DNA of 64,000 nucleotides from Candidatus Poribacteria bacterium (GCA_965205015.1 OZ242029.1:4000001-4064000), one strand, 5' to 3'. Positions 26,376-64,000 are shown, counted from the stretch's first letter. Numbers and translations: made by a program. Notes: generated from the sequence alone by a model not told the origin.

Positions 26376-26452
26376 GAGGGAATACCTCCTTTGGCAGTAT
26401 GATAACACAAATCACAATATTACCGCATTATTTTTTGATCGGAGAATTCTTG

Positions 26453-46207: not shown

Positions 46208-46237
46208 CACCTTTTACCGCTATCCTCGATTGGAGAT

Positions 46238-47011: not shown

Positions 47012-47042
47012 ATTACGCAATAGGAACTAAACCGGTGCATCT

Positions 47043-48982: not shown

Positions 48983-49747
48983 ATGGCAAACCGACTTAAA
49001 GATAAGATCGCCGTTATCACCGGTGCAGCCCGAGGCATCGGTGCGAAAAGCGCAGAACTCTTTGCGAGTGAAGGTGCCGCTGTGGCTATCTGGGATCTGA
49101 ATGCCGAGCGCGGCGAAGAAACCGTGCAGCAGATCCGATCTTCTGGTGGAACTGCTCTTTTCTCCGAGTGCGACGTAACTGATGCTACACAGATTGAACG
49201 TGCCGTTGCCTATGTCACCTCCGAACTTGGCACGCCGAATGTATTGTTCAACAACGCCGGTATAGCTGTCGTAGGCGAATTAGAAGAGATTTCCGAAGCA
49301 GACTGGGATCACCAATACGCCGTCAATGTAAAGAGTATCTATCTCGTTTCTCGTGCGATAATCCCATTGATGCGCGAAGCCGGGGGCGGTTCGATTATCA
49401 ACATGGCGAGTGAATCGGCGTATGTCGGGTTCCCGATGCACCCCGCCTATACCTCCTCCAAAGCCGCCGTCGTGCATCTCACACGAAGCATGGCAGTCCG
49501 ATATGCTGAGGACAACATCCGTGTTAACAGTCTCTGCCCCGGCACGATTAACACCGAACTCTATCAAGAATTCCTATTGAAGCAACCCGATCCAGAAGCG
49601 ATCAACACAGAGATCAAAGAGATGCATCCCTTAGGCATCGGCGAACCGGAAGACATCGCTTGGGCGGCGGTCTATTTAGCCTCCGATGAATCCAGATACA
49701 TGACGGGTGCCCCGATGCTCGTCGAGGGTGGCATATTGTCCCTTTAG
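48983..49747 (+). CDS. Short-chain dehydrogenase/reductase
   Basis: TGAARGIG, NNAG, YTSSK, IRVN...PG. Confidence 0.93.
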   Translation: MANRLKDKIAVITGAARGIGAKSAELFASEGAAVAIWDLNAERGEETVQQIRSSGGTALFSECDVTDATQIERAVAYVTSELGTPNVLFNNAGIAVVGELEEISEADWDHQYAVNVKSIYLVSRAIIPLMREAGGGSIINMASESAYVGFPMHPAYTSSKAAVVHLTRSMAVRYAEDNIRVNSLCPGTINTELYQEFLLKQPDPEAINTEIKEMHPLGIGEPEDIAWAAVYLASDESRYMTGAPMLVEGGILSL

Positions 49748-49763
49748 GGTTCCTGTAGGAGGG

Positions 49764-49910
49764 GAAGAAATCCGCAGAAATACGCAGAAATACGCAGAAA
49801 TACGCAGAAATACGCAGAAACACCCAAGCAAAGACACCAAGCAAAGACACCAAGCAAAGACACCAAGCAAATACCCCTATCAATACGCAGAAATACCCAA
49901 GCAAAAACAC
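49764..49910. repeat. Compound tandem repeat
   Basis: T(A/C)CGCAGAAA x5 (49771-49820), then CACC(C)AAGCAAA(G/T)A x4 (49821-49873), then mixed modules. Confidence 0.92.
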
Positions 49911-49931
49911 TCCGATTCCCGACCCATCTTT

Positions 49932-49956
49932 GTAGGAGCGATCTCCCGGTCACGAC
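49932..49956 (+). repeat. GTAG-type REP-like short palindrome
   Basis: GTAGGAGCGATCTCCCGGTCACGAC. Confidence 0.5.
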
Positions 49957-50251
49957 TTACCCTTCATTACATTTTCCACAATTTTTACAGAATTAGGCAA
50001 CCGTTTTGCCCTTAACTCGCGTCATTGTATATTACAAAATGGTCCATCTGGTGTTGATACATAGAAGGTACCAGCGTCGAAGGTATTGCACAAATTTGTG
50101 CATTCGCGAAGGGACTTCAAAAAACTCGGATTCCTTTCTTTTTCACATTTTGAACCTTTTTTATTCCAAGATTTCGTCTTAAAATAATAGAGGGTGCAAA
50201 TCGTATGCCCTGCTTAGTTTTGCGAGATTTTGCATTTGATTAGGAGGCACC

Positions 50252-52408
50252 ATGAAAAGGGAAGACGATGTTCAATTGATTTACAGAATATTATCGGGCG
50301 ATGCAGCAGCGTTTCGCGTTTTAGTCGAAAAGCACCAAAAGGGTGTTCACGCGCTTGTGTGGCGAAAGATCGGGGACTTTCACTATGCTGAAGAGATCAC
50401 ACAAGACACCTTCCTACGAGCCTACAAGAAGCTCTCAACGCTCAAAGATCCGAATCAGTTTACTGGATGGCTTTATGTCATCGCAAATCGACTCTGTATT
50501 GATTGGCTCCGAAAGCAAAAGTTTACAATGCAATCGTTGGAGGATACACCTGTGGAGGAAATTGACAAGGCCGCTTATGCCCGTCATATAGCCGAGCAAC
50601 GACAGACGGAGACCGCCGAGAATCACCGCGAAATAGTGAAAAAACTCTTGGCAAAGCTGCCAGAGAGTGAACGCACAGTTGTGACGCTCTACTATCTCGG
50701 CGAGATGACGACTAAAGAGATTAGTAAATTCTTGGGGGTGTCCGTGGATACGATTAAGACTCGGCTCCGACGCGGACGAAAACGCTTACAGGAACAACAG
50801 GTAGAACCTTTAGTTTCTGAAACACTCGGAACTATTCAATTCCCCGCACACATAACCGAGCGGATCATGCAGCAGGTCGCCGACATGGGTCCGATACAAC
50901 CGCCGGTTGGTAAACCGTTGCTACCGTGGATAGTTTTCGGCACAGTTGTCGTTGTGGTTATGTCAATGCTCGGTGTGAGTAACCAGTATCTTGCTCGGTT
51001 TCAGAAACCGTATAGTTTTGAGGCGGAAGCTGAGCCGACTATCGAAATCATTGATGCGTTTATCGTTCTTGATATTGCGGCAAAACCATCTGTGCGCAAT
51101 CAAGCTGGACGGGCTGATACCGCCCAAGAAAGCAGAGGTATCGGCACCCAAACCTCCCACACGACCGCAGCATCTCTGACATCAGGGGATACCGTCGCGT
51201 TTGCCCGAACAGCAGAACTCAAAATCGAGCGGACGCTGACCCAAGCGGATGGCTTAGCATCCGACACGGTTCTTACTGTTTTTGAAGATAGCCACGGCAC
51301 GGTGTGGTTTGGAACGACTGACGGACTCACCCGTTATGACGGCAAGAATTTTCAAACTTTCACAACGGAAGATGGATTGGCAAAAAACACGATAGGGCTT
51401 ATCTTTGAAGATCAGCGAGGCATGCTTTGGTGTGCTGATGGTGTACTCTCAAGTTTTCTGGAGAGAGGAAAGCCTATAGACATGTCATGGATGGAAACGC
51501 CATTGAGTGAACTCGATATCGCACTGCGTAACGAAACGCCCGAAGGAATGACAAGACGTATTCCATCAAAAGGCGTGAGTCGCTACGACGGCGAAAAGTT
51601 CAGGGTTTTTACAACCGCCGACGGGCTCGCTGGTGATACCGTTAAGGATATCTTTGAAGACGAAACTGGTACGCTTTGGTTCGCGACATCATTTGGTGTG
51701 AGCCACTATGATGGAGAAACTTTCAAAACTATCACTGTGGACGGACCGATGGGCATGGACGTATTACCTGACTGGTGGAGTCAAATCACGGCAGTTGCCC
51801 AGGATGCAGCAGGCAATTTTTGGTTCGGCAGCACTGCTGGAATTACCTACTATAGTACCGAAACGTCCCAATTCCGTCATTTTGCTATTGACCCGGATTT
51901 CGCCGCTTTCCAAGAGATGGGGCAAGTACGAAGCGCACACATAACCGACCTGCAGTTCGATGCGAACGACAACCTTTGGATGAGTCAAAGTCGTGGAGGT
52001 GATAAGAATAGCGGCATTCGTCAGTTCAATGGCAAAAAACTGGCGATTTTTCCGCAAAGTGAGCAACTTCCGATGAATAGCGTTGACAACATTATGCAGG
52101 ATAGGAACGGTAATCTTTGGTTTACGGGTGTTAAGAATGATGTGAATCAGCCGCCAATGGTACACGAAACCGAAGATAGTGTTAGCATGGTTTTTCCTGA
52201 AACTGAATCCAGCATAAGTGTATACGATGGCAAAACCTTCAAAAACTTTAACACCGCCGACGGTCTGCCGAGTAACCGCGTCTGGTCGGTATTTGAAGCC
52301 AGCGACGGCAAACTTTGGTTCGCTACCGATAAAGGTGTTGGCGTAGGCGTTTATACGCCTGCCCCAGCACACAAAAAAAATAACTTGATACCTTTGTTGA
52401 ATAATTAG
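50252..52408 (+). CDS. ECF sigma factor fused via a TM helix to a two-component-regulator (Reg_prop) beta-propeller
   Basis: Sigma2/sigma4 motifs (AEEITQDTF, F.GWLYVIA, EISKFLGVS..TIKTRL); hydrophobic WIVFGTVVVVVMSMLG; repeated FED..G.LWF.T..G..RYDG. Confidence 0.9.
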   Translation: MKREDDVQLIYRILSGDAAAFRVLVEKHQKGVHALVWRKIGDFHYAEEITQDTFLRAYKKLSTLKDPNQFTGWLYVIANRLCIDWLRKQKFTMQSLEDTPVEEIDKAAYARHIAEQRQTETAENHREIVKKLLAKLPESERTVVTLYYLGEMTTKEISKFLGVSVDTIKTRLRRGRKRLQEQQVEPLVSETLGTIQFPAHITERIMQQVADMGPIQPPVGKPLLPWIVFGTVVVVVMSMLGVSNQYLARFQKPYSFEAEAEPTIEIIDAFIVLDIAAKPSVRNQAGRADTAQESRGIGTQTSHTTAASLTSGDTVAFARTAELKIERTLTQADGLASDTVLTVFEDSHGTVWFGTTDGLTRYDGKNFQTFTTEDGLAKNTIGLIFEDQRGMLWCADGVLSSFLERGKPIDMSWMETPLSELDIALRNETPEGMTRRIPSKGVSRYDGEKFRVFTTADGLAGDTVKDIFEDETGTLWFATSFGVSHYDGETFKTITVDGPMGMDVLPDWWSQITAVAQDAAGNFWFGSTAGITYYSTETSQFRHFAIDPDFAAFQEMGQVRSAHITDLQFDANDNLWMSQSRGGDKNSGIRQFNGKKLAIFPQSEQLPMNSVDNIMQDRNGNLWFTGVKNDVNQPPMVHETEDSVSMVFPETESSISVYDGKTFKNFNTADGLPSNRVWSVFEASDGKLWFATDKGVGVGVYTPAPAHKKNNLIPLLNN

Positions 52409-52518
52409 GGAACCCTTATAACACTTACGCAATAATGTTGACATAGACATCCAAAAATACTAATGAAGATATCTCAACAATTAGATGGCTTCATATTTCT
52501 GATAGAAGGAGTTTTCCA

Positions 52519-53742
52519 ATGCGAAAACGATTACATACCATATGGCTGGCTGTATTTCTGCTATTATTGCATTGGACGGTATCCATTGCCCACGCAGCAG
52601 AACTCAAAATCGAAAAGACCCTAAACGAAACGGATGGGTTGGCATCTAACACAGTGCTTACCATTTTTGAAGATAGTCGCGGTAATATGTGGTTCGGAAC
52701 AACTGATGGACTCACTCGTTATGACGGAGAAAATTTTCGGACCTTCACAACAGAAGATGGATTATCACGTAACACAACGGGACTTATCTTTGAAGACCGA
52801 CATGGAATGCTCTGGTTTGCGAATGGTGTAGTCTTAAGTACCTTGGAAAGAGGGAAGCCAATAGACATGTCGTACATGGCAATGCCTTTGAGTGAACTTG
52901 CAAAAGAATTAGAAAACGAAATTCCAACAGAAACACTGACCCCTACTCCACCAAGAGGTGTCAGTCGTTATGATGGAGATATGTTCAGAATCTTTACGCC
53001 TGCCGATGGTCTCCTCCGAGATAACGTCAAGGACATACTTGGGGACAAAACAGGAATGCTTTGGTTCGCGACATCGTCTGGGGTGAATCGCTACGAGGCC
53101 GAAAGTTTTACCGGTATGGCCTTCAATGGTCCCATGGGGATGGATATATTACCCGACTGGTGGAATCAAGTTACGACAATTACACAGGATACAGCAGGAA
53201 ACTTCTGGTTTGGGAGTACTGCCGGCATCACCTACTACGATGTCCAAACGTCTGATTTCCGATACTTTGATGTAAATTTCATGCCTTTCCAAGAGATGGG
53301 GAAGGCGCAAATCGGACATGTGACAGATCTGCAGTTTGATGTAAAGGATAATCTCTGGATTAGCCGAGAAGGAATGGGTGATGAAAGGAGTGGTATTCGT
53401 CGCTACGATGGCGAAGTATTAGTTTCCTTTCCACAAAGTGAAGCACTTCCGATGAATAGTGTTCACAATATTCTATTAGATACCAGCGGCAACCTGTGGT
53501 TTGCGGGTACCAAAAAGCTACCGCCGACGCTGCATGACACCGAGGATAGTCTTAGCATGACTTATGCTGAAGCCGGCGTTGGTGTAAGTGTCTATAACGG
53601 TGAGACCTTTCAAAACTTTAACACAGATGACGGTCTACCGGGCAACAAGGTCTGGTCTGTCTTTGAGGATAGCAGGGGCAAACTCTGGTTCGCCACGGAT
53701 GCTGGTGCCGCAGTTGGCGTTTATCTACCCTCTGAAAAATAG
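52519..53742 (+). CDS. Secreted Reg_prop beta-propeller protein (paralog 2)
   Basis: Signal peptide AHA|AELKI; DGL....V..IFED..G.MWF repeats. Confidence 0.9.
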   Translation: MRKRLHTIWLAVFLLLLHWTVSIAHAAELKIEKTLNETDGLASNTVLTIFEDSRGNMWFGTTDGLTRYDGENFRTFTTEDGLSRNTTGLIFEDRHGMLWFANGVVLSTLERGKPIDMSYMAMPLSELAKELENEIPTETLTPTPPRGVSRYDGDMFRIFTPADGLLRDNVKDILGDKTGMLWFATSSGVNRYEAESFTGMAFNGPMGMDILPDWWNQVTTITQDTAGNFWFGSTAGITYYDVQTSDFRYFDVNFMPFQEMGKAQIGHVTDLQFDVKDNLWISREGMGDERSGIRRYDGEVLVSFPQSEALPMNSVHNILLDTSGNLWFAGTKKLPPTLHDTEDSLSMTYAEAGVGVSVYNGETFQNFNTDDGLPGNKVWSVFEDSRGKLWFATDAGAAVGVYLPSEK

Positions 53743-53833
53743 CTGTCGGCCGTCAACTGTCGCTGTTTGTAAAAAAGAAACAATTCTGAGACGCTTGCGT
53801 CTTTGCGGGTTGCTACTAAAGGAGACAAAACAG

Positions 53834-56800
53834 ATGAAAAAGATTTTTCAAAACATCACTTGTTTTTGGATGGCGATTCTCTTTGGAATCCCTTTCCTGT
53901 TGATCGGTTGTGTTAAAAAGGAGATTACTCGCCAAGCGGATTGGGAAACCCATTTTATGGACCTCCACTTTGCGGATGCCAAAAACGGATGGATCGTCGG
54001 GCATGGAGGCTGGATTCTCCATACCGTTGATGGCGGGGAAAGTTGGGAGAAACAGACAGTCAATACGACCGAAGATTTCAAATCGGTTTATTTCACAAAC
54101 CTCCGTAACGGTTGGGCAGTTGGAGACAAGGGGGTAATTGCGATTACAGACGATGGCGGCCGGCATTGGACAGTCCAAAAAACTGAGGTTTCTATGCTGC
54201 TTTTGGATGTCTTTTTCCTCAACGCAAAGATCGGTTGGATTGCTGGACAGGATGGGATGCTCTACACAGAAAACGGTGGAAAAACATGGCATCATCAAGA
54301 TGTAAGTGACTTTCAAATTAAGGGAGTTTTCTTTGTAAATAAAGATCGCGGGTGGACAGTCGGGGACTATGACCGAATCTTTGTTACCACTGACAGCAGT
54401 GATACGTGGCGGAGACAGGATAACCTCGTTAAAACGGATACCACGTCGACGGTTTGTAACCTTCACACCGTATTTTTTGTCAATCCTTACAAGGGATGGT
54501 GCGGGGGCACAGATGGCACGATTTTTCATACCACCAATGGTGGCGCAGAATGGAGCACCCAGGTGAGTAAACTGCCGCCGATTTATGGACATGTAGGTCC
54601 GATTGTGAACAACTTCCATTTTCTCAGCGAGGATTACGGTCTCGTCGTCGCACAGGGTGGATTTATTAATCGAACGGAGGACGGCGGAAACGACTGGCAA
54701 TTGGTAGAGAGTCCCACAAAAAACGATTTGATGGGGGTTCAGTTTATAAGCCATCAACAGGCGTGGGCTGTCGGTATGAACGGAACACTCTTGCACTCAG
54801 AAGATGGCGGTGTAACCTGGGACATGAAAAGCGGCACGACAGCCGATGCCCTACAGAGCGTCGCCTTTGCGGATGCAAACCGTGCGGTTGCCGTTGGAGA
54901 GAAGGGCACAATCACAACAAGCGATGACAGTGGTAAGACCTGGACGGATATAGAGATGGACACGTGGCACCGCATCCGGAACTTATCTTTTGTCACCGAC
55001 AAGGAAGGCTGGGCGGTTGGCGATGGTGGACTCATTCTCCACACGACCGATGCAGGTCAAACATGGGAACGGCAAACCAGCGGGTGGTGGTATACGCTGA
55101 ATGCCCTCCATTTCATTAACCCTCAGAAAGGGTGGATCGTTGGCGATTTGGGGACTGTGCTGCATACTGCGGACGGCGGTGAAACGTGGGTCCAACAAGT
55201 ACCGCGCTACTTCCACGAAATGATAAAGGGCATCTTTTTCCTCGATGAGAAAGAAGGCTGGGTGGTCGGATGGCCCGGTATTATTTTTCACACTATAGAC
55301 GGCGGTCGAACTTGGAAACGGCAGAACAGCAAGAGTTACAATGAACTCTACGCCGCTTACTTCATTGACAGACATACCGGCTGGGTGGTCGGACAACTCG
55401 GTGAGATTCTATACACACTCGACGGTGGAAAAACCTGGAAATTTCAACGGAGTGGGACGCAGGCGAATCTGAACAAAGTCTACTTTGCCGATGCAAATCA
55501 CGGGTTAATTGTTGGAGATGAAGGTGTTATTTTGACCACTGTCAATGGTGGGGTGACCTGGGAATCACAGAGGAGTGGTACATCTAACGACCTCTACAGT
55601 TTTTCGCTTTCTCCGGATGGTATTCTTGCTGTCGGTGAAGATGGTATCGCAATGCGATATTCTGTGGATACGGAGAAGTTTATCGTCGAGTTACCGCCTG
55701 CCGCGCAGGAGATAGAAGCAGCGGCACAACTCGAAGAAGCCGTTGAATATCATTGGGAGATTATCCGATCAGGAGCCTCGCAGACGTATTTTACCGATAC
55801 TTATTTCCTGTCGGCTATGCGCGGATGGACGGTCGGCCACGGGGGTGTTATTTTAAATACAATAGATGGCGGCAAAACCTGGTATCCACAACAAAGTGGT
55901 GTAACGGAGGATTTGCAGCGTATCGTCTTCATTGATGAGAAACACGGCTGGATCGGGGGCGATAGGATCGTGCTGCGGACCGAAAATGGCGGTGAGACAT
56001 GGCAGATAATCCGTGAAGGTTTGGAATCTATCTCCTATATCAGTGCGATGCACTTTATTAATCCGCAAGTGGGTTGGCTCGGTGCGAATGATGCACAAAC
56101 GCTTCACACAAGCGATGGCGGCAAAACCTTCCGATTGCAGAAAACAGGGCTTGGGAGCATGCCTATTAGCGACTTACACTTTATCAATACCGAAGAGGGG
56201 TGGGCAGTAATATCACGCATGATGAGAGAAGGTAGCTACATTCTGCATACCGTGGACGGTGGTGATAACTGGCAGGTCCAAACCAGAACACATAAATATG
56301 GTGTCGGTATTCATTTTATGAATGAAACTGCTGGTTGGGTGGTCCTGGCGAATGGGGCATCACTTCTCACAACAGATGGCGGCGCGACATGGAAACAGAC
56401 ACTGCCCCAAATGTCCGATGGCACTCGACTCCACGCCGTGAAATTTCGTAATCACACGGAAGCTTGGGGTATAGCGAATGACAAGAGACTTCTCATTACG
56501 CACAACCAAGGCAAGCGTTGGGAGATACTAAATGACTCGCTTGTTAACCCACGTTCAACCGTTGGCGATGAAAGCTGGGTTCACCAAATGGCAAAGGAAC
56601 AATTTCTCCCCGCCTTCAACGTGACGAACGCGCACATCCTTGAGGATGGACACGGTTGGATAGTCGGTGTGATTGTGGCATCACCTCGCACTACCACTGA
56701 ACCGGGTATTGATATTGACGATCAAGCGCAAGATACGATAGGCCAGATTTATGGCACAACAGATTTCGGAAAAAACTGGGACCACCGACTCGGCAAACAG

Positions 56801-57655
56801 CGGAATACCCTCCGTGATGTGTTGTTTATTGATGGGCAACACGGTTGGATTGCCGGGGATAACGGGGCCTTATTTTCGACTGAAGATGGCGGAGAGACTT
56901 GGCAATCTTTAGAGAGTGATACCATCCAACGTATTGTCGATGTCCACTTCACCAGTCTTGAACCGAAATGGGGATGGCTGATGCTCCGGGACGCAACATT
57001 ACTTTACACGCAGGATGGATCGCAATGGTCAGCACAAAACAAGCAAGAACGATTCTCACACCAGAACTCGTTCGCCATAAATGAGGTCGCATTCGGTAAC
57101 TTTTCTGAAGGATGGGCTGTCGGAGAGGGGGGTGATATTATACACAATCCAGACGGCGGCACAATTTGGGCACCGCAACGCACCTCAACCAGTAAGAACC
57201 TCACGAGCATTGATATGAAATTCGCACCCCTCGGTTGGGCAGTTGGGAGCAATGGTGTAACCCAGCGAACCGTCAATGGCGGCGAATATTGGAAGTTCCA
57301 TGAAACCGATACCGGTTCCGATCTGAACGCAGTGTCATTCATAACAAAACGCAAGGGGTGGGCAGTTGGACGGGGTGGAATTATCCTATCTACCACTGAT
57401 GGGGGGTTCACGTGGACATCAGAAGCAAGCGGCGTTAACCACACCCTTTACGATATTCTACCACTCTCTGAACAGGAAATCTACGCTGTCGGTGCCTCTG
57501 GAACTATCATTCGCTCGACAGATGGCGGAAAAACGTGGGAACCCGAGCATACCAGGACCAGTAAAAACTTGTATGCAATCACGCAGGTCAAAGATGGGGG
57601 GTCCCTCTGGGTGGTTGGGCAATTAGGTGTTGTGATGCGGCACTCCATGCAATAA
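53834..57655 (+). CDS. Large YCF48/BNR-repeat beta-propeller lipoprotein (copy 1)
   Basis: AAGGAG RBS, lipobox LIG|C, more than 20 GW.VG..G.ILHT.DGG.TW repeats. Confidence 0.9.
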   Translation: MKKIFQNITCFWMAILFGIPFLLIGCVKKEITRQADWETHFMDLHFADAKNGWIVGHGGWILHTVDGGESWEKQTVNTTEDFKSVYFTNLRNGWAVGDKGVIAITDDGGRHWTVQKTEVSMLLLDVFFLNAKIGWIAGQDGMLYTENGGKTWHHQDVSDFQIKGVFFVNKDRGWTVGDYDRIFVTTDSSDTWRRQDNLVKTDTTSTVCNLHTVFFVNPYKGWCGGTDGTIFHTTNGGAEWSTQVSKLPPIYGHVGPIVNNFHFLSEDYGLVVAQGGFINRTEDGGNDWQLVESPTKNDLMGVQFISHQQAWAVGMNGTLLHSEDGGVTWDMKSGTTADALQSVAFADANRAVAVGEKGTITTSDDSGKTWTDIEMDTWHRIRNLSFVTDKEGWAVGDGGLILHTTDAGQTWERQTSGWWYTLNALHFINPQKGWIVGDLGTVLHTADGGETWVQQVPRYFHEMIKGIFFLDEKEGWVVGWPGIIFHTIDGGRTWKRQNSKSYNELYAAYFIDRHTGWVVGQLGEILYTLDGGKTWKFQRSGTQANLNKVYFADANHGLIVGDEGVILTTVNGGVTWESQRSGTSNDLYSFSLSPDGILAVGEDGIAMRYSVDTEKFIVELPPAAQEIEAAAQLEEAVEYHWEIIRSGASQTYFTDTYFLSAMRGWTVGHGGVILNTIDGGKTWYPQQSGVTEDLQRIVFIDEKHGWIGGDRIVLRTENGGETWQIIREGLESISYISAMHFINPQVGWLGANDAQTLHTSDGGKTFRLQKTGLGSMPISDLHFINTEEGWAVISRMMREGSYILHTVDGGDNWQVQTRTHKYGVGIHFMNETAGWVVLANGASLLTTDGGATWKQTLPQMSDGTRLHAVKFRNHTEAWGIANDKRLLITHNQGKRWEILNDSLVNPRSTVGDESWVHQMAKEQFLPAFNVTNAHILEDGHGWIVGVIVASPRTTTEPGIDIDDQAQDTIGQIYGTTDFGKNWDHRLGKQRNTLRDVLFIDGQHGWIAGDNGALFSTEDGGETWQSLESDTIQRIVDVHFTSLEPKWGWLMLRDATLLYTQDGSQWSAQNKQERFSHQNSFAINEVAFGNFSEGWAVGEGGDIIHNPDGGTIWAPQRTSTSKNLTSIDMKFAPLGWAVGSNGVTQRTVNGGEYWKFHETDTGSDLNAVSFITKRKGWAVGRGGIILSTTDGGFTWTSEASGVNHTLYDILPLSEQEIYAVGASGTIIRSTDGGKTWEPEHTRTSKNLYAITQVKDGGSLWVVGQLGVVMRHSMQ

Positions 57656-57784
57656 TGAAGTTTAGAACGCAGACAATATACACAGAGCGTATCTCACATT
57701 GATGCGCGCTGAAGTCTAACACAGGCGATTATAGTAAAGCCCACAATTTGCGCGTTTAACGCTAATATTCTAATCATAACGCTA

Positions 57785-59038
57785 ATGAAAGGGGTTATCT
57801 CAGTGAAAAAACACTCGTGTTTAACAACCTTCGTTTTACTACTATTGTTAAACTGGATAGTATCCGTTGCTCACGCAGCAGAACTTAAAATCGAAAAGAC
57901 GCTCACCGAAAGTGACGGTTTGGCATCTAACACAGTGCTCACCGTTTTCGAGGACAGCCACGGTAATATATGGTTCGGAACAACTGATGGACTCACCCGT
58001 TATGACGGAAACAATTTCCAAACCTTCACGACGGAAGATGGATTGGTGCAGAACACGATAGGTCTTATCTTTGAAGACCAGCGAGGAATCCTCTGGTTCG
58101 CTGGTGGTGTGCTTTCAAGTGTTCCGGAAAGAGGAAAACCGATGGACATGTCTTGGATGGAAACGCCATTAAGCGAACTCGATATCACGCCGCATGACGA
58201 ACCACCCGAAGGAATGACGAGGCGTATTCCATTAAAAGGCGTGAGCCGCTACGACGGACACGAATTCAGAATCTTTACGACTGCCGACGGCCTCGCCGGT
58301 GATACCGTTAAGGATATCTTTGAAGACGAAGCCGGTACGCTTTGGTTCGCAACAGGGTTCGGCGTGAGTCGCTACGACGGTGAAAATTTCGACACGCTCA
58401 TGGCGGACGGACCTATAGGGATGTTTACATTACCTGAGGCATGGAACGCGGTTGAGGCAATCGCACAAGATACCGCTGGAAATTTTTGGTTCGGAAGCCA
58501 AGCGGGTATCAGTTACTACAATATCCAAAGGTCTCATTTCCGTTATTTTGCTGTTGATCCGGATTTCACACCTTTCCAAGAGATGGGGCAAGCACGGAAC
58601 GCTCATATAACCGATCTGCAGTTCGATGCGGAGGAAAACCTCTGGATGAGCCAAGATGATACAGACGAGGAATATGTCGGCATTCGTCAATACAACGGCA
58701 AAAAACTGACGATTTTTCCACAAAGTGAAGCACTTCCGATGAATAGCGTTAACAACATCATGCAGGATAGTAAAGGTAACCTCTGGTTTACGGGTGTTAA
58801 GAAACTACCTCCCAAGATGCATGAAACCGAAGACAGTGTTAGCATGATTTTTCCTGCAGTTGAATCCGGTGTAAGTGTATACAATGGCAAAACGTTCCAA
58901 AATTTTAACAAAGACGACGGTCTGCCGAGCGATCGTGTTTGGTCGGTATTTGAGGACAGCCGCGGCAAACTCTGGTTCGCCACGGATGCCGGTGCCGCAG
59001 TTGGGGTTTATCTTCCATCTCAAAACTCGGACAACTAA
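57785..59038 (+). CDS. Secreted Reg_prop beta-propeller protein (paralog 3; start may be GTG 57803)
   Basis: Signal peptide AHA|AELKI; colinear with 52519-53742. Confidence 0.9.
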   Translation: MKGVISVKKHSCLTTFVLLLLLNWIVSVAHAAELKIEKTLTESDGLASNTVLTVFEDSHGNIWFGTTDGLTRYDGNNFQTFTTEDGLVQNTIGLIFEDQRGILWFAGGVLSSVPERGKPMDMSWMETPLSELDITPHDEPPEGMTRRIPLKGVSRYDGHEFRIFTTADGLAGDTVKDIFEDEAGTLWFATGFGVSRYDGENFDTLMADGPIGMFTLPEAWNAVEAIAQDTAGNFWFGSQAGISYYNIQRSHFRYFAVDPDFTPFQEMGQARNAHITDLQFDAEENLWMSQDDTDEEYVGIRQYNGKKLTIFPQSEALPMNSVNNIMQDSKGNLWFTGVKKLPPKMHETEDSVSMIFPAVESGVSVYNGKTFQNFNKDDGLPSDRVWSVFEDSRGKLWFATDAGAAVGVYLPSQNSDN

Positions 59039-59096
59039 TCAATACTACAAAAATCCTTTATAGTAAAACCCGTAATTACTTATACACTAACACAAG

Positions 59097-59117
59097 GGCG
59101 AGGATACAATCCTCGCC
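59097..59117. repeat. Perfect short palindrome (REP-like)
   Basis: GGCGAGGAT-ACA-ATCCTCGCC. Confidence 0.5.
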
Positions 59118-59218
59118 AGCGGTGGTGGGGTGTTTGTTCCCTGACGAACTGTAAACATATTTTTGGATTTTACTATAATATTCCTAAGGCAATGGCAATA
59201 ACGAAGGGGGCAAAACAG

Positions 59219-62200
59219 ATGAAAAAGATTCTTCAAAACATCACTTGTTTTTGGATGGCGATTCTCTTTGGAATCCCTTTCCTGTTGATCGGTTGTGTTA
59301 AAAAAGAGATTACCCGCAAAGCCGATTGGGAGACCCATTTCCAAGGCATCCATTTTGTGGATGCCAAGCACGGATGGATCGTCGGGCATCAAGGCTGGAT
59401 TCTCCATACCGCTGACGGGGGCGTGAATTGGGAAAAACAGACGGTGAACACAAATGAGGATTTCAAAGCCGTTTATTTCACAAACGTGCGCAACGGCTGG
59501 GCAGTTGGGGACAAGGGGTTAATCGCCACGACTGACGATGGTGGACGGCATTGGACGCTACAGAACAGCGGAAGCCATGCTTTGCTTTTGGATGTTTTTT
59601 TCGTCAATTCGAAGCTGGGGTGGGTTGTCGGACGCGATGGCGCCCTTTACACAAAAAATGGTGGAAAAACGTGGCATCATCAGGCGATAAGCGAGTTTGG
59701 ACTTGGGGGCACCTGGTTCGTGAGCAAATATCGCGGCTGGACGGTTGGCGACTATAACCGGAGTTTTTTGACAAATGATGGAGGACAGACTTGGCACAGA
59801 CAGGGGAGTTTGGTGAGAGAAGACCAAATGCTTTTCAACGTCCAGACAGTCCATTTTATCGGTGATTCTAAGGGATGGTGCGGTGGCACAGATGGAACCA
59901 TCTTTCACACCACCACAGGCGGCACACAATGGCAACAACAGGTGAGTCGATTTCCGCTGGTGATGGGGCATATCGCTCCAACTGTTAATGACATTGATTT
60001 CATGAACGATGACCAGGGTGTAATGGTCGCTCAGGGTGGATTTATCAATCGAACAGAGGATGGTGGAGACAATTGGCAATTGGTGGAAAGTCCGACCAAG
60101 AATGACTTAACCGGTGTTCAATTCATAAGTCCAAAAGAGATATGGGGGGTCGGTTTAAATGGTACGCTGCTGCACTCGATTGATGGGGGGACGACGTGGG
60201 ACATGAAAAGCGGCACGACAGCAAACGACCTGAACAGTGTTGCGTTTGCAGACGCAGACCGCGCGGTTGCTGTTGGTGAACATGGTGCTATCACGATGAG
60301 CCAAGACGGTGGTAAAACTTGGACCGACCTGGATATGGATGTTTGGCATCGGATTCGGAACCTATCTTTTGCCACTGACAGGGAAGGTTGGGCAGTTGGA
60401 GATGGCGGACTCATCCTCCACACCACCGATGCAGGTCAAACGTGGGAACGGCAAACCAGCGGTTGGTGGTATACCCTCAATGCCCTTCATTTCATCAATT
60501 CAAAAAAGGGCTGGGTCGTCGGAGATTTAGGCACAGTGCTTCATACAGTGGATGGTGGAGAAACGTGGATTCAACAAGCACCCCGCTACTTTCATGAGAT
60601 GATTAAAGGGATCTTTTTCCTTAACGAGGAAGAGGGCTGGGTGGTCGGATGGCCCGGTATTATTTTTCAGACACAGGATGGTGGGATCACCTGGAAACGA
60701 CAGAATAGCAACAGTTACAACGAGCTCTATGCCGCCTACTTTGTTGACAGACACACCGGCTGGGTTGTTGGACAATTCGGCGAAATTTTACATACCTTAG
60801 ATGGCGGCAAAACGTGGAAGTTTCAACGGAGCCGAACACAAGCACATCTCAACAAAGTCTATTTTGCGGATGCAAATCACGGGTTAATCGTCGGCGATGA
60901 AGGCGTGATTTTAACCACCACCAATGGAGGCGTGACGTGGGAGTTGCAGAAAAGCGGCACGTCTAACGATCTTTATAGTTTCTCGCTTTCCCCCGATGGT
61001 ATCCTTGCTGTCGGTGAAGGCGGGATTGCGATGCGATACTCTGTGGATACGGAGCAGTTCACTGTCGAGTTGCCGCCTGCTGCGCAAGAGATGGAAGCGG
61101 CGTCCGAATCGGTGGAACCGGTTGAATATTATTGGGAGGTTGTTCGTCAGGGAAACTGGCGCTCCCATTTCACTGATATCTATTTCCTGTCGGCACAGCA
61201 GGGGTGGGCAGTCGGGGGTGGCGGCATCATTTTACATACTGTAAATGGCGGCAAAACGTGGCAACCCCAACAAAGTAGTGTCACAAAGGATTTGCAGCGG
61301 ATTCTCTTTATTGATAAAAACTACGGTTGGGTTACCGGTCAGGGTGTGTTACTACGAACGGAAAACGGGGGTGAGACATGGCAAGCGATTCATGAGGGGC
61401 TACAAAACTTCCGAAGTATCCGGGCGATCTACTTCGTCAACCCCAAGGAGGGTTGGATCGGGGTCGATAAGGGGCAAATCTTGCGCACCAGCGACGGCGG
61501 CAAAACCTTCCGCTTGCAGAAAACCGGGACAACGAATCAGCCAATCGCGGACCTACATTTTATTGATAGCAAAGAGGGGTGGGCGGTTACCCCCCAACGG
61601 CGAGAGGGTGGATTGATTCTGCACACCCTTGATGGGGGGGATTATTGGCAAATTCAGGCACGGACACATCAACGGGGCGTCGGTGTCCATTTTTCAAATG
61701 CCCAATCGGGTTGGGTGGTTATGAAAGATGGGAGTTCCCTGCTCACGACAGATGGCGGGGAGACATGGGAACAAACCTCGAGAATAGATTTCGGAATCCG
61801 TCTCCATACCGTGAAATTCCGCAATCACACTGAGGCGTGGGGATTTATTGAGGGGGAAGCAATTTTCACGACGCAAAATCGAGGCAAAAGCTGGGAAACA
61901 GTCCGTTTTTCGCTTGGAACTGAAGCTGCTGACACCGAGGCACAAAGTTGGATAGAACAGATGATAGAGGAACGTCCCTTCAATTTGATGCCCCAAATTA
62001 CCAACGCACATTTCTTGGCGGATGGCAGAGGTTGGGCAGTCGGCGGCGTGCTGGTTCAAGAGGGGGCTCCCGATGGGAAGGATTTTGACAGTCTTAATAA
62101 GACACAAGCGTCTGGCGGTCAGATTTATTATACGACAGATGGTGGGAAGACTTGGGCGCATCAATTTGGTGAATCGCTTGATGACTTACGCGATGTCCTG

Positions 62201-63058
62201 TTTCTTGATGAACAGCGAGGGTGGGTTGTCGGAGATAATGGAGCCTTATTTTCAACAGCAGATGGCGGAGAAAGTTGGAGGCGTTTGAGGAGTGGTACCA
62301 CCCAACGCATTGTCGATGTCCACTTTGTGAGTCGTAATCCGGAGTGGGGGTGGGCGATGACCCGCAATGGGTCCTTGCTTTACACTGTTGACGGTGAGGA
62401 TTGGTCAACAAACTTGCCAGATGGGCTTGCAAGCGACATTCTGGATAAGCGGGAACTCCGTCCGGGTGCTGCGACTTCCATAAACGATGCTGCCTTTGGC
62501 AAGTTTTCTGAGGGATGGGCTGTCGGTCAGAGTGGAGAGATTTTCCACAATCAGGATGGCGGTTTAATTTGGACACTTCAACGCACTTCAACCGGAAAAG
62601 AGCTCATGGGTATCGATATGAAATTCGCACCGCTCGGCTGGGCGGTTGGAGCCAACGGTGTCATCCAGCGAACTGTCAACGGCGGTGACTATTGGAAATT
62701 TCACGAGACCGACACGGGCTATGATCTCTATGCGGTATCCTTCATCAGTAAACGGAAAGGGTGGGCAGCTGGGCGGGGTGGGATTCTTTTGTACACTTCT
62801 GACGGTGGATTTACTTGGACACCACAGTTGAGTCGTCTACCAGAATCCCTGTACGATATTTTGGCACTCTCTGAACAGGAACTTTACGCTGTCGGCGCCT
62901 CTGGAACCATTATTCATTCCGCAGACGGTGGGGAAACGTGGGAGCGGGAGCATACCGAAATTGACAATGATCTGTACGCAATCACGCAGGTCAAAGAGGG
63001 TAATACACTGTGGGTCGTTGGGCAAGGCGGCGTTGTGCTGCGGCGTCCTAAACGCTGA
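59219..63058 (+). CDS. Large YCF48/BNR-repeat beta-propeller lipoprotein (copy 2)
   Basis: Lipobox LIG|C; colinear paralog of 53834-57655. Confidence 0.9.
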   Translation: MKKILQNITCFWMAILFGIPFLLIGCVKKEITRKADWETHFQGIHFVDAKHGWIVGHQGWILHTADGGVNWEKQTVNTNEDFKAVYFTNVRNGWAVGDKGLIATTDDGGRHWTLQNSGSHALLLDVFFVNSKLGWVVGRDGALYTKNGGKTWHHQAISEFGLGGTWFVSKYRGWTVGDYNRSFLTNDGGQTWHRQGSLVREDQMLFNVQTVHFIGDSKGWCGGTDGTIFHTTTGGTQWQQQVSRFPLVMGHIAPTVNDIDFMNDDQGVMVAQGGFINRTEDGGDNWQLVESPTKNDLTGVQFISPKEIWGVGLNGTLLHSIDGGTTWDMKSGTTANDLNSVAFADADRAVAVGEHGAITMSQDGGKTWTDLDMDVWHRIRNLSFATDREGWAVGDGGLILHTTDAGQTWERQTSGWWYTLNALHFINSKKGWVVGDLGTVLHTVDGGETWIQQAPRYFHEMIKGIFFLNEEEGWVVGWPGIIFQTQDGGITWKRQNSNSYNELYAAYFVDRHTGWVVGQFGEILHTLDGGKTWKFQRSRTQAHLNKVYFADANHGLIVGDEGVILTTTNGGVTWELQKSGTSNDLYSFSLSPDGILAVGEGGIAMRYSVDTEQFTVELPPAAQEMEAASESVEPVEYYWEVVRQGNWRSHFTDIYFLSAQQGWAVGGGGIILHTVNGGKTWQPQQSSVTKDLQRILFIDKNYGWVTGQGVLLRTENGGETWQAIHEGLQNFRSIRAIYFVNPKEGWIGVDKGQILRTSDGGKTFRLQKTGTTNQPIADLHFIDSKEGWAVTPQRREGGLILHTLDGGDYWQIQARTHQRGVGVHFSNAQSGWVVMKDGSSLLTTDGGETWEQTSRIDFGIRLHTVKFRNHTEAWGFIEGEAIFTTQNRGKSWETVRFSLGTEAADTEAQSWIEQMIEERPFNLMPQITNAHFLADGRGWAVGGVLVQEGAPDGKDFDSLNKTQASGGQIYYTTDGGKTWAHQFGESLDDLRDVLFLDEQRGWVVGDNGALFSTADGGESWRRLRSGTTQRIVDVHFVSRNPEWGWAMTRNGSLLYTVDGEDWSTNLPDGLASDILDKRELRPGAATSINDAAFGKFSEGWAVGQSGEIFHNQDGGLIWTLQRTSTGKELMGIDMKFAPLGWAVGANGVIQRTVNGGDYWKFHETDTGYDLYAVSFISKRKGWAAGRGGILLYTSDGGFTWTPQLSRLPESLYDILALSEQELYAVGASGTIIHSADGGETWEREHTEIDNDLYAITQVKEGNTLWVVGQGGVVLRRPKR

Positions 63059-63087
63059 TAGGCGTTAACCTATCTCATAAACGTTTG

Positions 63088-63141
63088 AATATCGTGCGGA
63101 AACACGCGAAATACACAGCCGTCTCTGCACGATATTTTTTT
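63088..63141 (+). terminator. Possible terminator hairpin
   Basis: AATATCGTGC(GGA)...(TCT)GCACGATATT followed by a T-tract; loop is long. Confidence 0.4.
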
Positions 63142-63427
63142 GTTTATTACATTTTCCCAATTTCCTCAAAATCACACAACAACATCCCCTTCCTAAATGG
63201 CGTTTACGTCAGTCCTGACTTTAACAATTTCAGATACTTTTAATTCCTCAGATAAAAATCCAGATTTTTCGCTTTATGCACCCTTTCCATTCTTAAACCG
63301 TATCATTAATTATAAAAGCGTGCCACATACCCTTCACGAAAGTTGGTTGTGCAAAACCTGATTCTCTGAACAATAAATGAAAGAGCATCCGTATCGTAAT
63401 ATAGAATAGAATTAAAGGAAGTCCAAT

Positions 63428-64000
63428 ATGTTAATGACCATGATTCAAAAAGAGATTATGCATCACATTCTGAGCGTCCGTTTTGTCGCCCTCCTTTTGA
63501 TGTGTCTCCTCCTCGTCCCGCTGACCCTTTCTACCAATTACCGAAATTATCGCCAGAACTTAGTGGATTATCAAGAAGCCGTTAAACTCGCCAACATTGA
63601 AGAGACCACCGTAAATCCGAAGCTACCGCCGCAACCGGAAGTTGAAGTTTCCAAACTTTTTTTCAAACCGACACCGTTGAGTGTCTTCGCAAATGGATTG
63701 GAGGACTCACTCCCGAGTTACCTCGGCATGACGCGTAATGGAATCACACAGGGACCGCCATCTACGTTTTCAGCACCTCTTACCCAACTTTTAGGACATC
63801 TCGATTTTCTATTTGTGGTAGGTACTGTCTTCAGTCTCCTGGCACTACTGTTCACATTTGATGCCGTTGCTGGAGAAAGAGAAGCGGGCACATTGCGGAT
63901 CACTTTAGCGAATTCCTTGCCGCGCGATCTATTTTTATGGAGCAAATTGATTGGCGGATACTTGGTATTCGTTGTTCCATTTTTGGTTTCTCTTCTATTC
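63428..64000 (+). CDS. ABC-2 type transporter permease (3' end outside window)
   Basis: AAGGA RBS; MLMTMIQKEI...; LD...V...SLLALLFTFDAVAGEREAGTLR...N.L.R. Confidence 0.85.
   Translation, partial: MLMTMIQKEIMHHILSVRFVALLLMCLLLVPLTLSTNYRNYRQNLVDYQEAVKLANIEETTVNPKLPPQPEVEVSKLFFKPTPLSVFANGLEDSLPSYLGMTRNGITQGPPSTFSAPLTQLLGHLDFLFVVGTVFSLLALLFTFDAVAGEREAGTLRITLANSLPRDLFLWSKLIGGYLVFVVPFLVSLLF

Follow-up and report, generated by a model that had tools for sequence, protein, structure and literature searches.

A transmembrane ECF σ factor with an outer Reg_prop propeller, encoded next to paralogous secreted propellers in Candidatus Poribacteria

A gene of Candidatus Poribacteria, a sponge-symbiont bacterium, encodes a protein of 718 aa (here P1; 50252..52408, + strand) in which Pfam, NCBIfam and AlphaFold2 delineate a transmembrane ECF σ factor with an extracytoplasmic Reg_prop propeller. 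The window, that is, the whole stretch of 64,000 nucleotides that was analysed and to which all coordinates refer, contains after it the genes of a secreted propeller (P2), a giant lipoprotein (YCF48-A), a further secreted propeller (P3), a further giant lipoprotein (YCF48-B) and an ABC-2 permease, so that six ORFs, all on the + strand like every other feature located below, stand in the order given in an earlier note on this DNA. On balance, we lean towards the view that P1 is a one-component transmembrane ECF σ factor that is set free by regulated proteolysis and controls its own operon.

The σ domain (res 8-182; 50273..50797) consists of regions 2 and 4 and scores 106.2 bits against the TIGR02937 sigma70-ECF model, whose cutoff is 42.9. 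Pfam places Sigma70_r2 at res 24-90 and Sigma70_r4_2 at res 127-179, also matches Sigma70_ECF, and scores Reg_prop at 94.9 bits. The presence of σ regions 2 and 4 only, without region 3 or 1.1, identifies P1 as an ECF (group 4) σ factor, and all NCBIfam equivalog and subfamily models remain under their cutoffs, the best being SigW (121 vs 209). In the AlphaFold2 N-terminal model the domain is mostly above pLDDT 90, and the closest solved folds are SigW/RsiW (5wur), AlgU and σE. It holds a single Cys, C82, while region 4 and res 183-320 are free of Cys.

Region 4 is separated from the membrane by only ~36 residues, an interval too short for a canonical four-helix anti-σ domain, and no match to zf-HC2, FecR, RskA or any other anti-σ Pfam family was obtained in P1 at E<=0.01. 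Within this interval lies a conserved cytoplasmic helix with the motif L-T-E-N-I-M (res 200-212; 50849..50887), modelled as such at pLDDT ~91. Its conservation, as that of the following elements, was counted over the 137 of 151 aligned representatives of a wider family, discussed below, which keep the σ domain, the transmembrane (TM) helix and the juxtamembrane motif: L201 is found in 107, T202 in 106, I205 in 115 and M206 in 100. The topology of P1 rests on hydropathy and the AlphaFold2 model, both of which reveal the one TM helix that the earlier note had presumed (res ~222-246; 50915..50989), as the one hydrophobic peak of the protein at res ~222-246 (Kyte-Doolittle 19-mer maximum 2.28) and as a helix modelled over res 226-246, respectively. 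This helix is entered through K-P-x-x-P-W (K221 in 120 representatives, P222 in 129, P225 in 133, W226 in 108) and left through G-x-[GS] (G241 in 129; G, S or A at position 243 in 123).

Outside the membrane, a conserved juxtamembrane motif follows (L-x-R-F-Q-x-P-Y-S-x-x-A-x-S-E-x-T-[VI]-E-I; res 247-285; 50990..51106), modelled at low confidence (pLDDT 50-59) and supported by Q251 in 127 representatives, P253 in 121, Y254 in 128 and A258 in 113; it is common to paralogs whose outer domains are unrelated. Its retention whatever the outer domain, as well as the small-x-small arrangement at the TM exit, would be compatible with processing. In Bacillus subtilis RsiV, site-1 cleavage is carried out by signal peptidase after ligand binding, a case which the small-x-small motif of the P1 family resembles. 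A variable linker (res 286-320; 51107..51211; pLDDT <50), of which a 14-residue stretch is missing from 5 of the 12 aligned fusions and the last 9 codons are a signal-peptide c-region remnant, leads to the propeller (res 321-705; 51212..52366; AlphaFold2, Foldseek). As we read the D-x-x-G-x-[LVF]-W strand groups alongside the DSSP string, there are seven blades, and pLDDT mostly exceeds 90 except at res ~414-438 and ~642-646, two loops modelled with low confidence.

The top Foldseek match of this propeller, 4a2m (E 3e-16), is the periplasmic part of BT4663, a hybrid two-component system (HTCS) that senses heparin, and the best fold and sequence matches of the propellers are the sensor domains of BT4663, BT3049 and BT4673. 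Bacteroides HTCSs use Reg_prop propellers as glycan sensors, and these sensors share with P1 the fold, the extracytoplasmic and membrane-tethered position and signalling by one protein. In contrast, an HTCS combines two propellers and Y_Y_Y with a histidine kinase, a receiver and AraC output, whereas P1 joins one propeller to σ output; P1 was rejected as an HTCS on the grounds of its one seven-bladed propeller and of the absence of any Pfam match to Y_Y_Y, HisKA, HATPase, Response_reg or HTH_18. The resemblance is confined to the propeller domain, at 16-19% identity to BT4663 in the fold alignment, and on this analogy of fold alone a glycan might be the cue of P1.

When considered against known σ factors, the σ-TM-sensor design is already known from IutY, ECF52 and ECF57, and P1 is a variant of it, not a new category. 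An extracytoplasmic C-terminal domain joined to an ECF σ factor by a TM helix has been described for IutY/ECF243 and ECF48/52/53 (PMC8999054), ECF57 members carry WD40-like propellers and ECF128 anti-σ factors carry BNR/YCF48 sensors (PMC7826278 supplement). The earlier note's “new signalling system” is thus too strong a term (PMC8999054, PMC7826278), whereas its one-component sensor stands as a conserved single-pass σ-TM-propeller fusion without a separate anti-σ factor: the Pfam and NCBIfam scan of 50252-64000 returned no anti-σ or histidine-kinase domain, as that note had stated.

IutY of Pseudomonas putida, an ECF243 σ/anti-σ hybrid, resembles P1 in being one chain with an N-terminal ECF σ, one TM and a periplasmic C-terminal part (PMC8999054), and its σ is freed by sequential proteolysis, by Prc and then RseP (PMC8999054, PMC5411451), as is expected of ECF48/52/53 too (PMC8999054). 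It possesses a FecR-type anti-σ domain and has a TonB-dependent outer-membrane receptor as its partner, whereas P1 has a propeller instead and no receptor gene nearby; with no FecR or other anti-σ match in an interval of that length, P1 was not accepted as an IutY/ECF243-type hybrid. ECF57 (Planctomycetes) and ECF48/52/53 (Actinobacteria) likewise join an ECF core, TM and an extracytoplasmic domain (PMC7826278, PMC8999054), which is a WD40-like propeller in 21% of ECF57s2 (PMC7826278 supplement) and a carbohydrate-binding domain in the ECF52 protein SCO4117 (PMC7826278 supplement, PMC8999054). According to the criteria in the PMC7826278 supplement, in the sections drawn on here, ECF57 is marked by ~2 TM helices and by two invariant Cys, one each in σ2 and σ4; P1, with one TM helix, C82 only and a host in Poribacteria rather than Planctomycetes, does not belong there. 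Neither does it belong to ECF48/52/53, which carry a zinc-finger anti-σ module, since P1 has no zf-HC2 (ZAS) after region 4 and lacks Cys in res 183-320. In the same sections of PMC7826278 and PMC8999054, neither Reg_prop nor the juxtamembrane motif is reported for ECF57 or ECF48/52/53, and the word “Poribacteria” occurs 0 times in those of PMC7826278, main text and supplement.

P2 (407 aa, signal segment res 1-26; 52519..53742) and P3 (417 aa, signal segment res 1-31; 57785..59038) were delimited by Pfam, alignment and hydropathy, and score 93 and 109 bits, respectively, against Reg_prop (Pfam); in a phmmer search of the PDB, P2 matches 4a2l at 3.7e-35. Both are predicted to be secreted, as their N-terminal hydrophobic segments (Kyte-Doolittle maximum 1.84 and 2.08) close with A-H-A and so present the small residues at -3/-1 of a Sec signal peptide. 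The outer propeller of P1, 62% identical to P2 and 72% to P3, is indeed a paralog of its secreted neighbours, and YCF48-A is 68% identical to YCF48-B across 1287 columns; judged from the sequences, neither similarity can be due to chance. The fusion joint had been placed exactly at the signal-peptidase site. It is found near AELKIE (51212), but the similarity starts ~27 nt earlier and reaches 9 codons into the signal-peptide c-region (TVAFARTA vs TVSIAHAA/IVSVAHAA), so that the joint lies inside the former signal peptide.

The giant proteins YCF48-A (1273 aa from an MKK start; 53834..57655; Pfam, lipobox) and YCF48-B (1279 aa; 59219..63058; Pfam, lipobox, phmmer) contain ~four YCF48/BNR-type propellers each, the Pfam PSII_BNR/YCF48 scores being 416 bits in 16 stretches and 412 bits in 13 stretches, respectively. 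Their starts are likely to be at 53834 and 59219 rather than at the longer ORF starts, and both are predicted lipoproteins with a lipobox of the form [LVI][ASTVI][GAS]C, reading IPFLLIG before C at res 19-26, after a hydrophobic segment (Kyte-Doolittle maximum 2.24). They share a propeller sequence family with Ycf48/HCF136, the Ycf48 structures 5ojp and 2xbg matching at ~1e-30 (YCF48-B to 5ojp at 7.9e-31, phmmer against the PDB), and NCBIfam PRK13684 exceeds its cutoff on them only when the repeats are summed. True Ycf48/HCF136 is a single 7-bladed propeller of ~330 aa in oxygenic phototrophs that acts on D1/PSII, and YCF48-related multi-propeller proteins are found in many phyla. An identification of YCF48-A/B as this PSII assembly factor was rejected in view of their length, their 13-16 stretches and the lack of any photosynthesis gene among the 42 window ORFs in the Pfam scan.

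Reg_prop propellers and giant YCF48-like lipoproteins are strictly coupled in genomes. A YCF48 gene stands one or two genes 3' of all 13 intact σ-propeller genes (12 loci and the window), and directly after the free propeller gene in 15/15 cases in the loci and 2/2 in the window, so that the two do co-occur elsewhere.

The fusion itself is not a one-off, as it is full-length, with an open reading frame, in at least 34 protein clusters among the 120 listed (59-100% identity), and intact in 12 of 63 related loci from species-representative genomes. Among seven intact window-type fusions, the σ domains are 92-96% and the TM-juxtamembrane parts 86-93% identical, and in the propeller tree the fused propellers group in a single clade with full support, the nearest being 90% identical to P1. 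Two of 14 loci, L005 and L060, retain the propeller and YCF48 genes but only a deletion remnant of the fusion gene, which indicates that the module can exist without a P1-type σ factor. A σ-Kelch paralog in L047 is frameshifted. These decayed genes, the signal-peptide remnant at the joint and the repeated swapping of modules seen between σ tree and propeller tree would all be expected if P1 were a neutral or decaying recombination of a σ-TM gene with an adjacent propeller gene, the propeller having no sensory role. Against this by-product reading, which is already disfavoured and which we regard as highly improbable, stand the conservation of all P1 parts, the single clade of fused propellers, the frame kept open in so many clusters, the conserved promoter described next and the recurrence of the design with at least nine outer-domain types across hundreds of clusters.

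An ECF-type promoter-like motif, TGAACC-N17-TCGTCTTAA (50151..50182), lies 70 nt 5' of the P1 start and is present without mismatch before the σ-propeller gene in 10/10 σ1-type loci (the window, L001-L006, L022, L025 and L060), the spacer sequence varying. Through this predicted promoter P1 may regulate its own gene. No P1-type promoter was found within the loci before P2, YCF48-A, P3, YCF48-B or the ABC-2 gene with up to three mismatches allowed, and control of the neighbours would therefore depend on operon read-through alone. Between P3 and YCF48-B there are a hairpin and a σ70-like promoter.

P1 is no special case: it belongs to a large, apparently undescribed family of transmembrane σ switches, comprising at least 1431 clusters, since the TM-juxtamembrane part alone is matched in 1431 of 1510 candidate clusters. 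The family is defined in the present analysis by the ECF core, the L-T-E-N-I-M helix, the K-P-x-x-P-W entry, the G-x-[GS] exit, the R-F-Q-x-P-Y-S juxtamembrane motif and a variable outer domain, and P1 carries all these elements of the poribacterial set. A recognisable outer domain was obtained in 46 of 62 scanned representatives, in 9 kinds that include BNR, WD40, Kelch and Reg_prop propellers, LRR, lectin and redoxin; the σ-TM-juxtamembrane scaffold thus carries interchangeable outer domains. In cellulolytic clostridia, SigI/RsgI constitute paralogous σ systems within a genome, with extracellular sensing modules related to the regulated proteins, and the P1 family resembles them in its many paralogs, each with a different outer sensing module. 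In the SigI/RsgI and RsiV systems a true anti-σ domain is present and the sensor is not part of the σ polypeptide, whereas P1 is one chain with no recognisable anti-σ domain.

A free paralog of its own outer domain occurs in the same locus for 24 of 66 σ fusions (E<1e-8, non-σ ORFs), compared with 273 of 4092 pairs when ORFs of other loci are considered. Such pairs cover seven outer-domain types (Reg_prop, Kelch, WD40, LRR/GHL15, lectin/CarboxypepD, a redoxin type and one without Pfam match), and 12 of 13 free paralogs inspected by eye have a signal-like N-terminus. These observations, together with the repeated exchange by which fused and free propellers stay alike, favour a switch in which free P2 or P3, instead of a small ligand, would bind the tethered propeller directly as a hetero-dimer, holding σ off or on. 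Such a switch would report the amount of unoccupied free propeller, a feedback by decoy or titration, and other pairs of a σ-TM-X fusion and a secreted X' would work alike. HTCS sensor domains do dimerise. Set against this, a free paralog is missing from the surrounding 10 kb for 42 of the 66 fusions, the BNR-type ones without exception; the 24 positive cases include many orthologous loci and amount to ~7 independent ones; and a simple tandem duplication with subsequent fusion would equally place paralogs side by side. Such sensing of a paralog seems to us rather unlikely.

In the favoured reading of release by proteolysis, the σ domain would be inactive while P1 stays tethered, and the outer propeller would receive the signal, perhaps a glycan or another ligand that secreted P2/P3 and/or the YCF48 lipoproteins may bind as well. 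With an outer domain copied from a neighbouring secreted protein, the regulator would read the very cue on which the regulated envelope module acts. The signal would lead to cleavage of P1 outside and then within the membrane (regulated intramembrane proteolysis, as in IutY and RsiV), after which the freed σ domain would transcribe from P1's own promoter, giving more P1, and read-through would raise the downstream P2-YCF48-P3-YCF48 genes.

No feature of P1 explains inactivity while tethered, and with its short interval and no anti-σ domain the σ might work at the membrane. P1 would then never be released but would recruit RNA polymerase there, like ToxR/CadC-type activators, modulated by the propeller through conformational change or oligomerisation. 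No site-1 or site-2 protease gene was seen in the P1 neighbourhood, which agrees with such a tethered σ, and HTCS Reg_prop sensors are said, from structural work on BT4663, to signal via dimer rearrangement and not proteolysis. Nevertheless, we know of no σ factor shown to work membrane-tethered, and a tether of 36 residues would leave little room for region 4 on the β-flap and, simultaneously, region 2 on the β′ coiled-coil. Moreover, TM-bearing σ fusions, characterised as well as predicted, are assigned to proteolytic activation (PMC8999054, in the sections drawn on here), and a permanently tethered, active P1 appears unlikely.

At 45527-48152, upstream of P1, there is a separate classical trio of σ factor, zf-HC2 anti-σ factor (46238-47011; 79 bits) and MucB-like protein. 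At the other end, the ABC-2 family permease gene (63428..64000; ABC2_membrane_2, 54 bits) continues beyond the window end, and its orthologs, at 81-97% identity, stand after the module in L008, L009, L011, L051 and L060. It is preceded by a second ECF-family promoter-like motif, TGCACCC-N-CCGTATC (63277..63304), which is matched as a regular expression in the window, L051 and L008 and, by eye, as a one-base variant in L009, and which resembles the promoters 5' of other σ factors of the family.

The earlier note had placed six genes in a row, and all six were found at those positions on the + strand: P1, a transmembrane (TM) ECF sigma factor with an outer Reg_prop propeller (50252-52408; Sigma70_r2, Sigma70_r4_2 and Reg_prop in Pfam); P2, a secreted propeller (52519-53742; Reg_prop); the giant lipoprotein YCF48-A, of about four YCF48/BNR-type propellers (likely start 53834, end 57655); a second secreted propeller, P3 (57785-59038; Reg_prop); a second giant, YCF48-B (59219-63058); and an ABC-2 permease (ABC2_membrane_2) that begins at 63428 and runs past the end of the window. 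The longest ORF of YCF48-A opens with a GTG at 53588, inside the end of P2, and the ATG at 53834 (MKK..., lipobox LLIGC) is taken as its start, since both the start of YCF48-B at the homologous place and the signal of a lipoprotein speak for it. Both giants carry a lipobox, are 68% identical to each other and score 412-416 bits with PSII_BNR/YCF48 of Pfam, in 13-16 stretches, besides matching Sortilin-Vps10 and BNR. NCBIfam assigns P1 to the sigma70-ECF superfamily (106 bits, cutoff 42.9), with every finer NCBIfam sigma model below its own cutoff. P2 and P3 are 62% and 72% identical to the C-terminal part of P1, and their N-terminal segments are signal-like by hydropathy and sequence and end in AHA. 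That the fusion joint coincides exactly with the signal-peptidase site did not hold, as the similarity of P1 to P2 and P3 reaches nine codons upstream of AELKIE (TVAFARTA in P1 against TVSIAHAA), in the DNA too; the joint therefore lies inside the former signal peptide.

The TM helix claimed for P1 is borne out by one hydrophobic segment (residues ~222-246, Kyte-Doolittle maximum 2.28), the topology being read from hydropathy and an AlphaFold2 model rather than from a dedicated TM or signal predictor. When modelled with an alignment of 98 sequences, the propeller occupies residues 321-705 with pLDDT mostly >90 and a low-confidence insert at 414-438, and repeated D-x-x-G-x-[LVF]-W strand groups lead us to read it as seven-bladed; residues 212-318 stay below pLDDT 50. 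A second AlphaFold2 model, of residues 1-330 with an alignment of 97 family members, gives the sigma core a pLDDT >90 and helix 200-212 one of ~91, and places the TM helix at 226-246, while the juxtamembrane motif, a conserved stretch just outside this helix (residues 247-285), is left unfolded even with these 97 sequences (pLDDT 50-59) and yields no structural hint of its role. Region 4 is separated from the membrane by only about 36 residues, and Pfam finds no anti-sigma domain in P1. The nearest folds to the sigma core are SigW, AlgU, sigmaE and SigK, and those to the propeller in the PDB (Foldseek) are the periplasmic sensor domains BT4663 (E 3e-16), BT3049 and BT4673 of Bacteroides hybrid two-component systems, of which BT4663 senses heparin/heparan sulphate; phmmer concurs (P2 against 4a2l, 3.7e-35).

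The concern that the sigma-propeller fusion might be a one-off can be set aside, since 34 full-length clusters and 12 loci with an intact gene were found. The 34 (59-100% identity, 98-100% coverage) stand among the best 120 clusters for full-length P1, the remainder being 5 partial and 81 propeller-only proteins of 405-479 aa; all organism-named clusters among these 120 are Candidatus Poribacteria. When species-representative genomes were searched with a 12-fusion alignment, 63 loci came up, 59 of them titled Poribacteria and 2 'uncultured bacterium'; the other two, from a deltaproteobacterial and a Latescibacterota MAG, are sigma-only at ~30% identity. Beyond these genomes, the range of the family is taken from protein clusters without genomic context. 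The intact gene is present in L001-L004, L006, L008, L009, L011, L013, L022, L025 and L051. Deletion remnants of it persist beside propeller and YCF48 genes in L005 (1915-3040; residues 1-267 joined out of frame to 623-705) and L060 (10001-10350; residues 1-44 joined to 662-705). The reading of L005 as an ancestral split form, with a sigma-TM ORF and a separate propeller, was dropped once tblastn identified the remnant. A sigma-Kelch paralog in L047 (9992-11904) is broken by a frameshift, and a YCF48 gene in L060 (11622-15502) lies in two ORFs; assembly error in the MAGs may alternatively account for the decayed genes of L005, L060 and L047.

Most of the 63 loci match P1 only over residues 1 to ~290/360, that is, sigma, TM helix and juxtamembrane motif, and then continue into other domains: in 30 scanned proteins these were Kelch, BNR/Sortilin/YCF48-type or WD40 propellers, LRR with or without GHL15, C-type lectin with CarboxypepD_reg, AhpC/TSA redoxin, methyltransferase, or a part without a recognisable domain. 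When residues 1-320 were searched exhaustively, 319 representatives (50% clusters) passed E<=1e-30, and in an alignment of 151 sequences (the best 150 of the 319 plus P1) the sigma domain, TM helix and juxtamembrane motif are kept in 137, with lengths from 276 to 1377 aa (median 881). Pfam, applied to 62 of the family representatives, assigned outer domains of BNR/Sortilin/DUF6242-type propellers to 19, WD40 to 15, LRR to 5, GHL15 to 2, and Kelch, Redoxin, Transglutaminase, lectin with CarboxypepD_reg and Big_5 to one each, with none detected in 16. The 137 share a helix before the membrane (L-T-E-N-I-M), a TM entry with K221 (120), P222 (129), P225 (133) and W226 (108), a TM exit with G241 (129) and G/S/A243 (123), and, in the juxtamembrane motif, Q251 (127), P253 (121) and Y254 (128). 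Residues 186-300 alone match 1431 of 1510 candidate clusters, the three organism-named ones all being Poribacteria, and two peptide patterns by themselves point to at least 3-4 paralogs per complete chromosome.

A free paralog next door is a trait of this family. When the outer parts of 66 sigma fusions were compared with all ORFs of their own locus (E<1e-8), 24 had a non-sigma ORF resembling their own outer domain, versus 273 of 4092 pairs with other loci; with the Reg_prop cases left out, the figures are 12/54 and 117/3348. These include all 12 Reg_prop fusions, Kelch (L007), WD40 (L015), LRR/GHL15 (L023), an unnamed domain (L014, L016, L017, L018, L020, L061), lectin/CarboxypepD (L017, L018) and one redoxin type (L044), and since many of the 24 loci are orthologous, the independent cases come to about seven domain types. 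Of the 13 free paralogs inspected by eye, 12 have an N-terminus that looks like a signal. No paralog ORF occurs in the loci of the BNR-type fusions or of most redoxin-type ones.

That propeller and YCF48 genes co-occur elsewhere was confirmed: a YCF48 gene directly follows 15 of 15 free propeller genes in the loci, a sample biased by the loci having been found through sigma, and both free propeller genes of the window likewise directly precede YCF48 genes. The order sigma-propeller, free propeller, YCF48 is seen in nine cases (eight loci and the window). L009, L011, L013 and L051 have free propeller, YCF48, sigma-propeller, YCF48, ABC-2, so that the fused propeller itself fills the propeller slot of a propeller-YCF48 pair. 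Each locus holds one to two pairs, two loci have two YCF48 genes behind one propeller, and in trees the partners mostly diverge together. ABC-2 permease genes (ABC2_membrane_2/DUF3526) recur downstream of the module, with no ATPase gene for them seen in the loci. A second recurrent sigma-plus-ABC-2 arrangement is found with the AhpC/TSA redoxin sigma fusions of about 620-650 aa (L029-L038, L040, L044, L057, L059), which are followed by two permease genes (512 and ~457 aa) in 12 of 14 listed loci; only the second permease was detected in L038, and in L037 the second has just 206 aa.

Quick tree searches with SH-aLRT as the only support indicate that the modules have been shuffled. Of the 30 propellers in one tree, those that are fused fall into three well-supported clades (kinds A, B and C) interspersed with free propellers, with at least three label changes needed, two of them forced by starred branches; among 72 sigma domains, those bearing Reg_prop fall into two separate clades (99* each), here sigma1- and sigma2-type, one of which is sister (98*) to BNR-bearing sigmas. 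Both trees combined give four pairings: sigma1 goes with A in the window and with C in L006, and sigma2 with C in L008 and with B in the L009 group. Protein cluster P0026 is a mosaic: its sigma is like that of the sigma2 group, its TM helix, juxtamembrane motif, linker and propeller are like those of the sigma1/short-propeller group, and it is direct evidence that paralogs have recombined.

P1 is preceded by an ECF-type promoter-like motif 70 nt upstream, TGAACC-N17-TCGTCTTAA (50151-50182, + strand), which occurs without mismatch and with a varying spacer in 10/10 sigma1-type loci (window, L001-L006, L022, L025, L060) and resembles the sigmaW-type consensus. A strict two-block scan found this single site and none upstream of P2, P3, the YCF48 genes or ABC-2, and the loose form GAACC-N14-20-CGTC gave 7 matches in the window versus 4.35 expected, which is not significant. 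Other sigma paralogs have GCACCC/GTACCC ... TGTGTCTTTAA upstream (30 matches versus 0-5 in shuffles). To the same family belongs TGCACCC-N-CCGTATC[AC]TTAATTATAAAAG upstream of ABC-2 (63277-63304, + strand), found at the same position in L008, L009 and L051; as it is identical whether the locus is sigma1- or sigma2-type, it is not tied to the sigma next to it. In the sigma2-type loci L009, L013, L051 (~9765-9886) and L008, the GCACCC/GTACCC-type promoter-like element ATTATGTACCCTTTC...AAAAATGTGTC[AT]TTAATATAAAG is tandemly duplicated, about 82 bp apart, upstream of the sigma-propeller gene. Scans of 49500-64000 for sigma70 promoters and terminators stayed at or near shuffle level, yielding only a hairpin and a TATAAT-type site between P3 and YCF48-B. 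Between an SDR gene and the P1 promoter lie perfect or near-perfect tandem arrays (49766-49871) of a 10-mer, AGAAATACGC x5.5, and a 13-mer, CCAAGCAAAGACA x3.7.

Starting from what is observed of P1 (its architecture, conservation, family, propeller-YCF48 coupling and promoter), we propose that its sigma domain would be freed by regulated proteolysis, because the juxtamembrane motif is kept no matter which outer domain follows, as would be expected of a shared site for processing or docking, and because the TM exit bears a small-x-small motif resembling signal-peptidase sites. RsiV provides an analogy for such a site. A further reason is that IutY is activated by such proteolysis, as ECF48/52/53 are expected to be (PMC8999054). 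Against proteolytic release stand the lack of a protease gene nearby, of the P1 promoter at neighbouring genes and of an anti-sigma domain to account for silencing. Among the rival explanations, a sigma active while still tethered is quite unlikely in our view, and a neutral fusion very improbable. As to the signal, it is possible, if doubtful, that the tethered propeller directly senses the free paralog. A broader reading, that of 'paralog-coupled transmembrane sigma factors', we likewise offer only tentatively: a shared chassis would recurrently capture, by recombination, the mature secreted part of a neighbour, and the tethered copy would sense the free paralog through homotypic binding or through rivalry for a common partner, here the giant YCF48 lipoprotein. 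If so, the cell would gauge how abundant or how occupied its own secreted proteins of the envelope or for host-matrix binding are, with one sigma per protein class, and P1, P2, P3 and the YCF48 proteins would be the clearest instance of this design.

Signalling in bacteria has ECF sigma factors as its third pillar, and to our knowledge nearly all of those studied need a separate anti-sigma factor. ECF57/ECF01-Gob was reportedly defined in a J Bacteriol paper of 2012. The design of ECF sigma, TM helix and extracytoplasmic domain is already known from IutY/ECF243 and ECF48/52/53 (PMC8999054) and from ECF57 (supplement of PMC7826278), and ECF128 is described as having separate anti-sigmas with BNR/YCF48 sensors (supplement of PMC7826278). 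When set against their described defining features, P1 differs from IutY/ECF243 in having no FecR domain, from ECF48/52/53 in having no zinc finger, and from ECF57, with its Cys pair and about two TM helices, in having no Cys pair and one TM helix. Titles and the beginnings of abstracts gave no earlier account of the Poribacteria sigma-TM-outer-domain family; as far as these searches go, what is new is the family together with the juxtamembrane motif, the Reg_prop output pairing, the free paralog that recurs beside the fusions, and the propeller-YCF48 module. The family is natural and highly expanded, with sensor and sigma in one chain, a freely exchangeable sensor and no recognisable anti-sigma domain. 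It could thus serve to test by what means a sigma is kept silent and set free when such a domain is lacking, and could show how new sensory specificities arise via capture of a neighbouring secreted protein. Since many outer domains are 'eukaryote-like' propellers, LRR and lectin modules, it could also reveal which cues of the host matrix are monitored by an uncultured sponge symbiont, and the compact chassis with matching promoters makes orthogonal single-gene transmembrane switches for synthetic biology conceivable.

The fold relation to BT4663, together with two genes of the window, one for a GH129 glycoside hydrolase (31459-33432, - strand) and one for a protein with an FGE-sulfatase (sulfatase-maturing) domain (25383-26408, - strand), suggests that a glycan may be the ligand of P1. 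These two genes and that of an 817-aa CotH-kinase protein with a lamin-tail domain (42945-45398, + strand) fit a host-glycan and host-matrix lifestyle and are not linked to the module. At 45527-48152 (+ strand) a classical separate ECF sigma of 226 aa heads a trio with an anti-sigma of 257 aa (two zf-HC2 zinc-finger repeats) and a MucB/RseB-like protein of 369 aa (highly charged R/D/E-rich insert); this sigma, 28-31% identical to that of P1, also lies ~5 kb upstream of the sigma-propeller gene in L001-L004, L006, L022, L025 and L060. Finally, a type II secretion/type IV pilus-like cluster (2109-16722, - strand) encodes a 1003-aa secretin with five Secretin_N repeats, a PilM-like protein, a T2SK-like protein with HHH_3, a GspG pseudopilin, GspF and a GspE ATPase.
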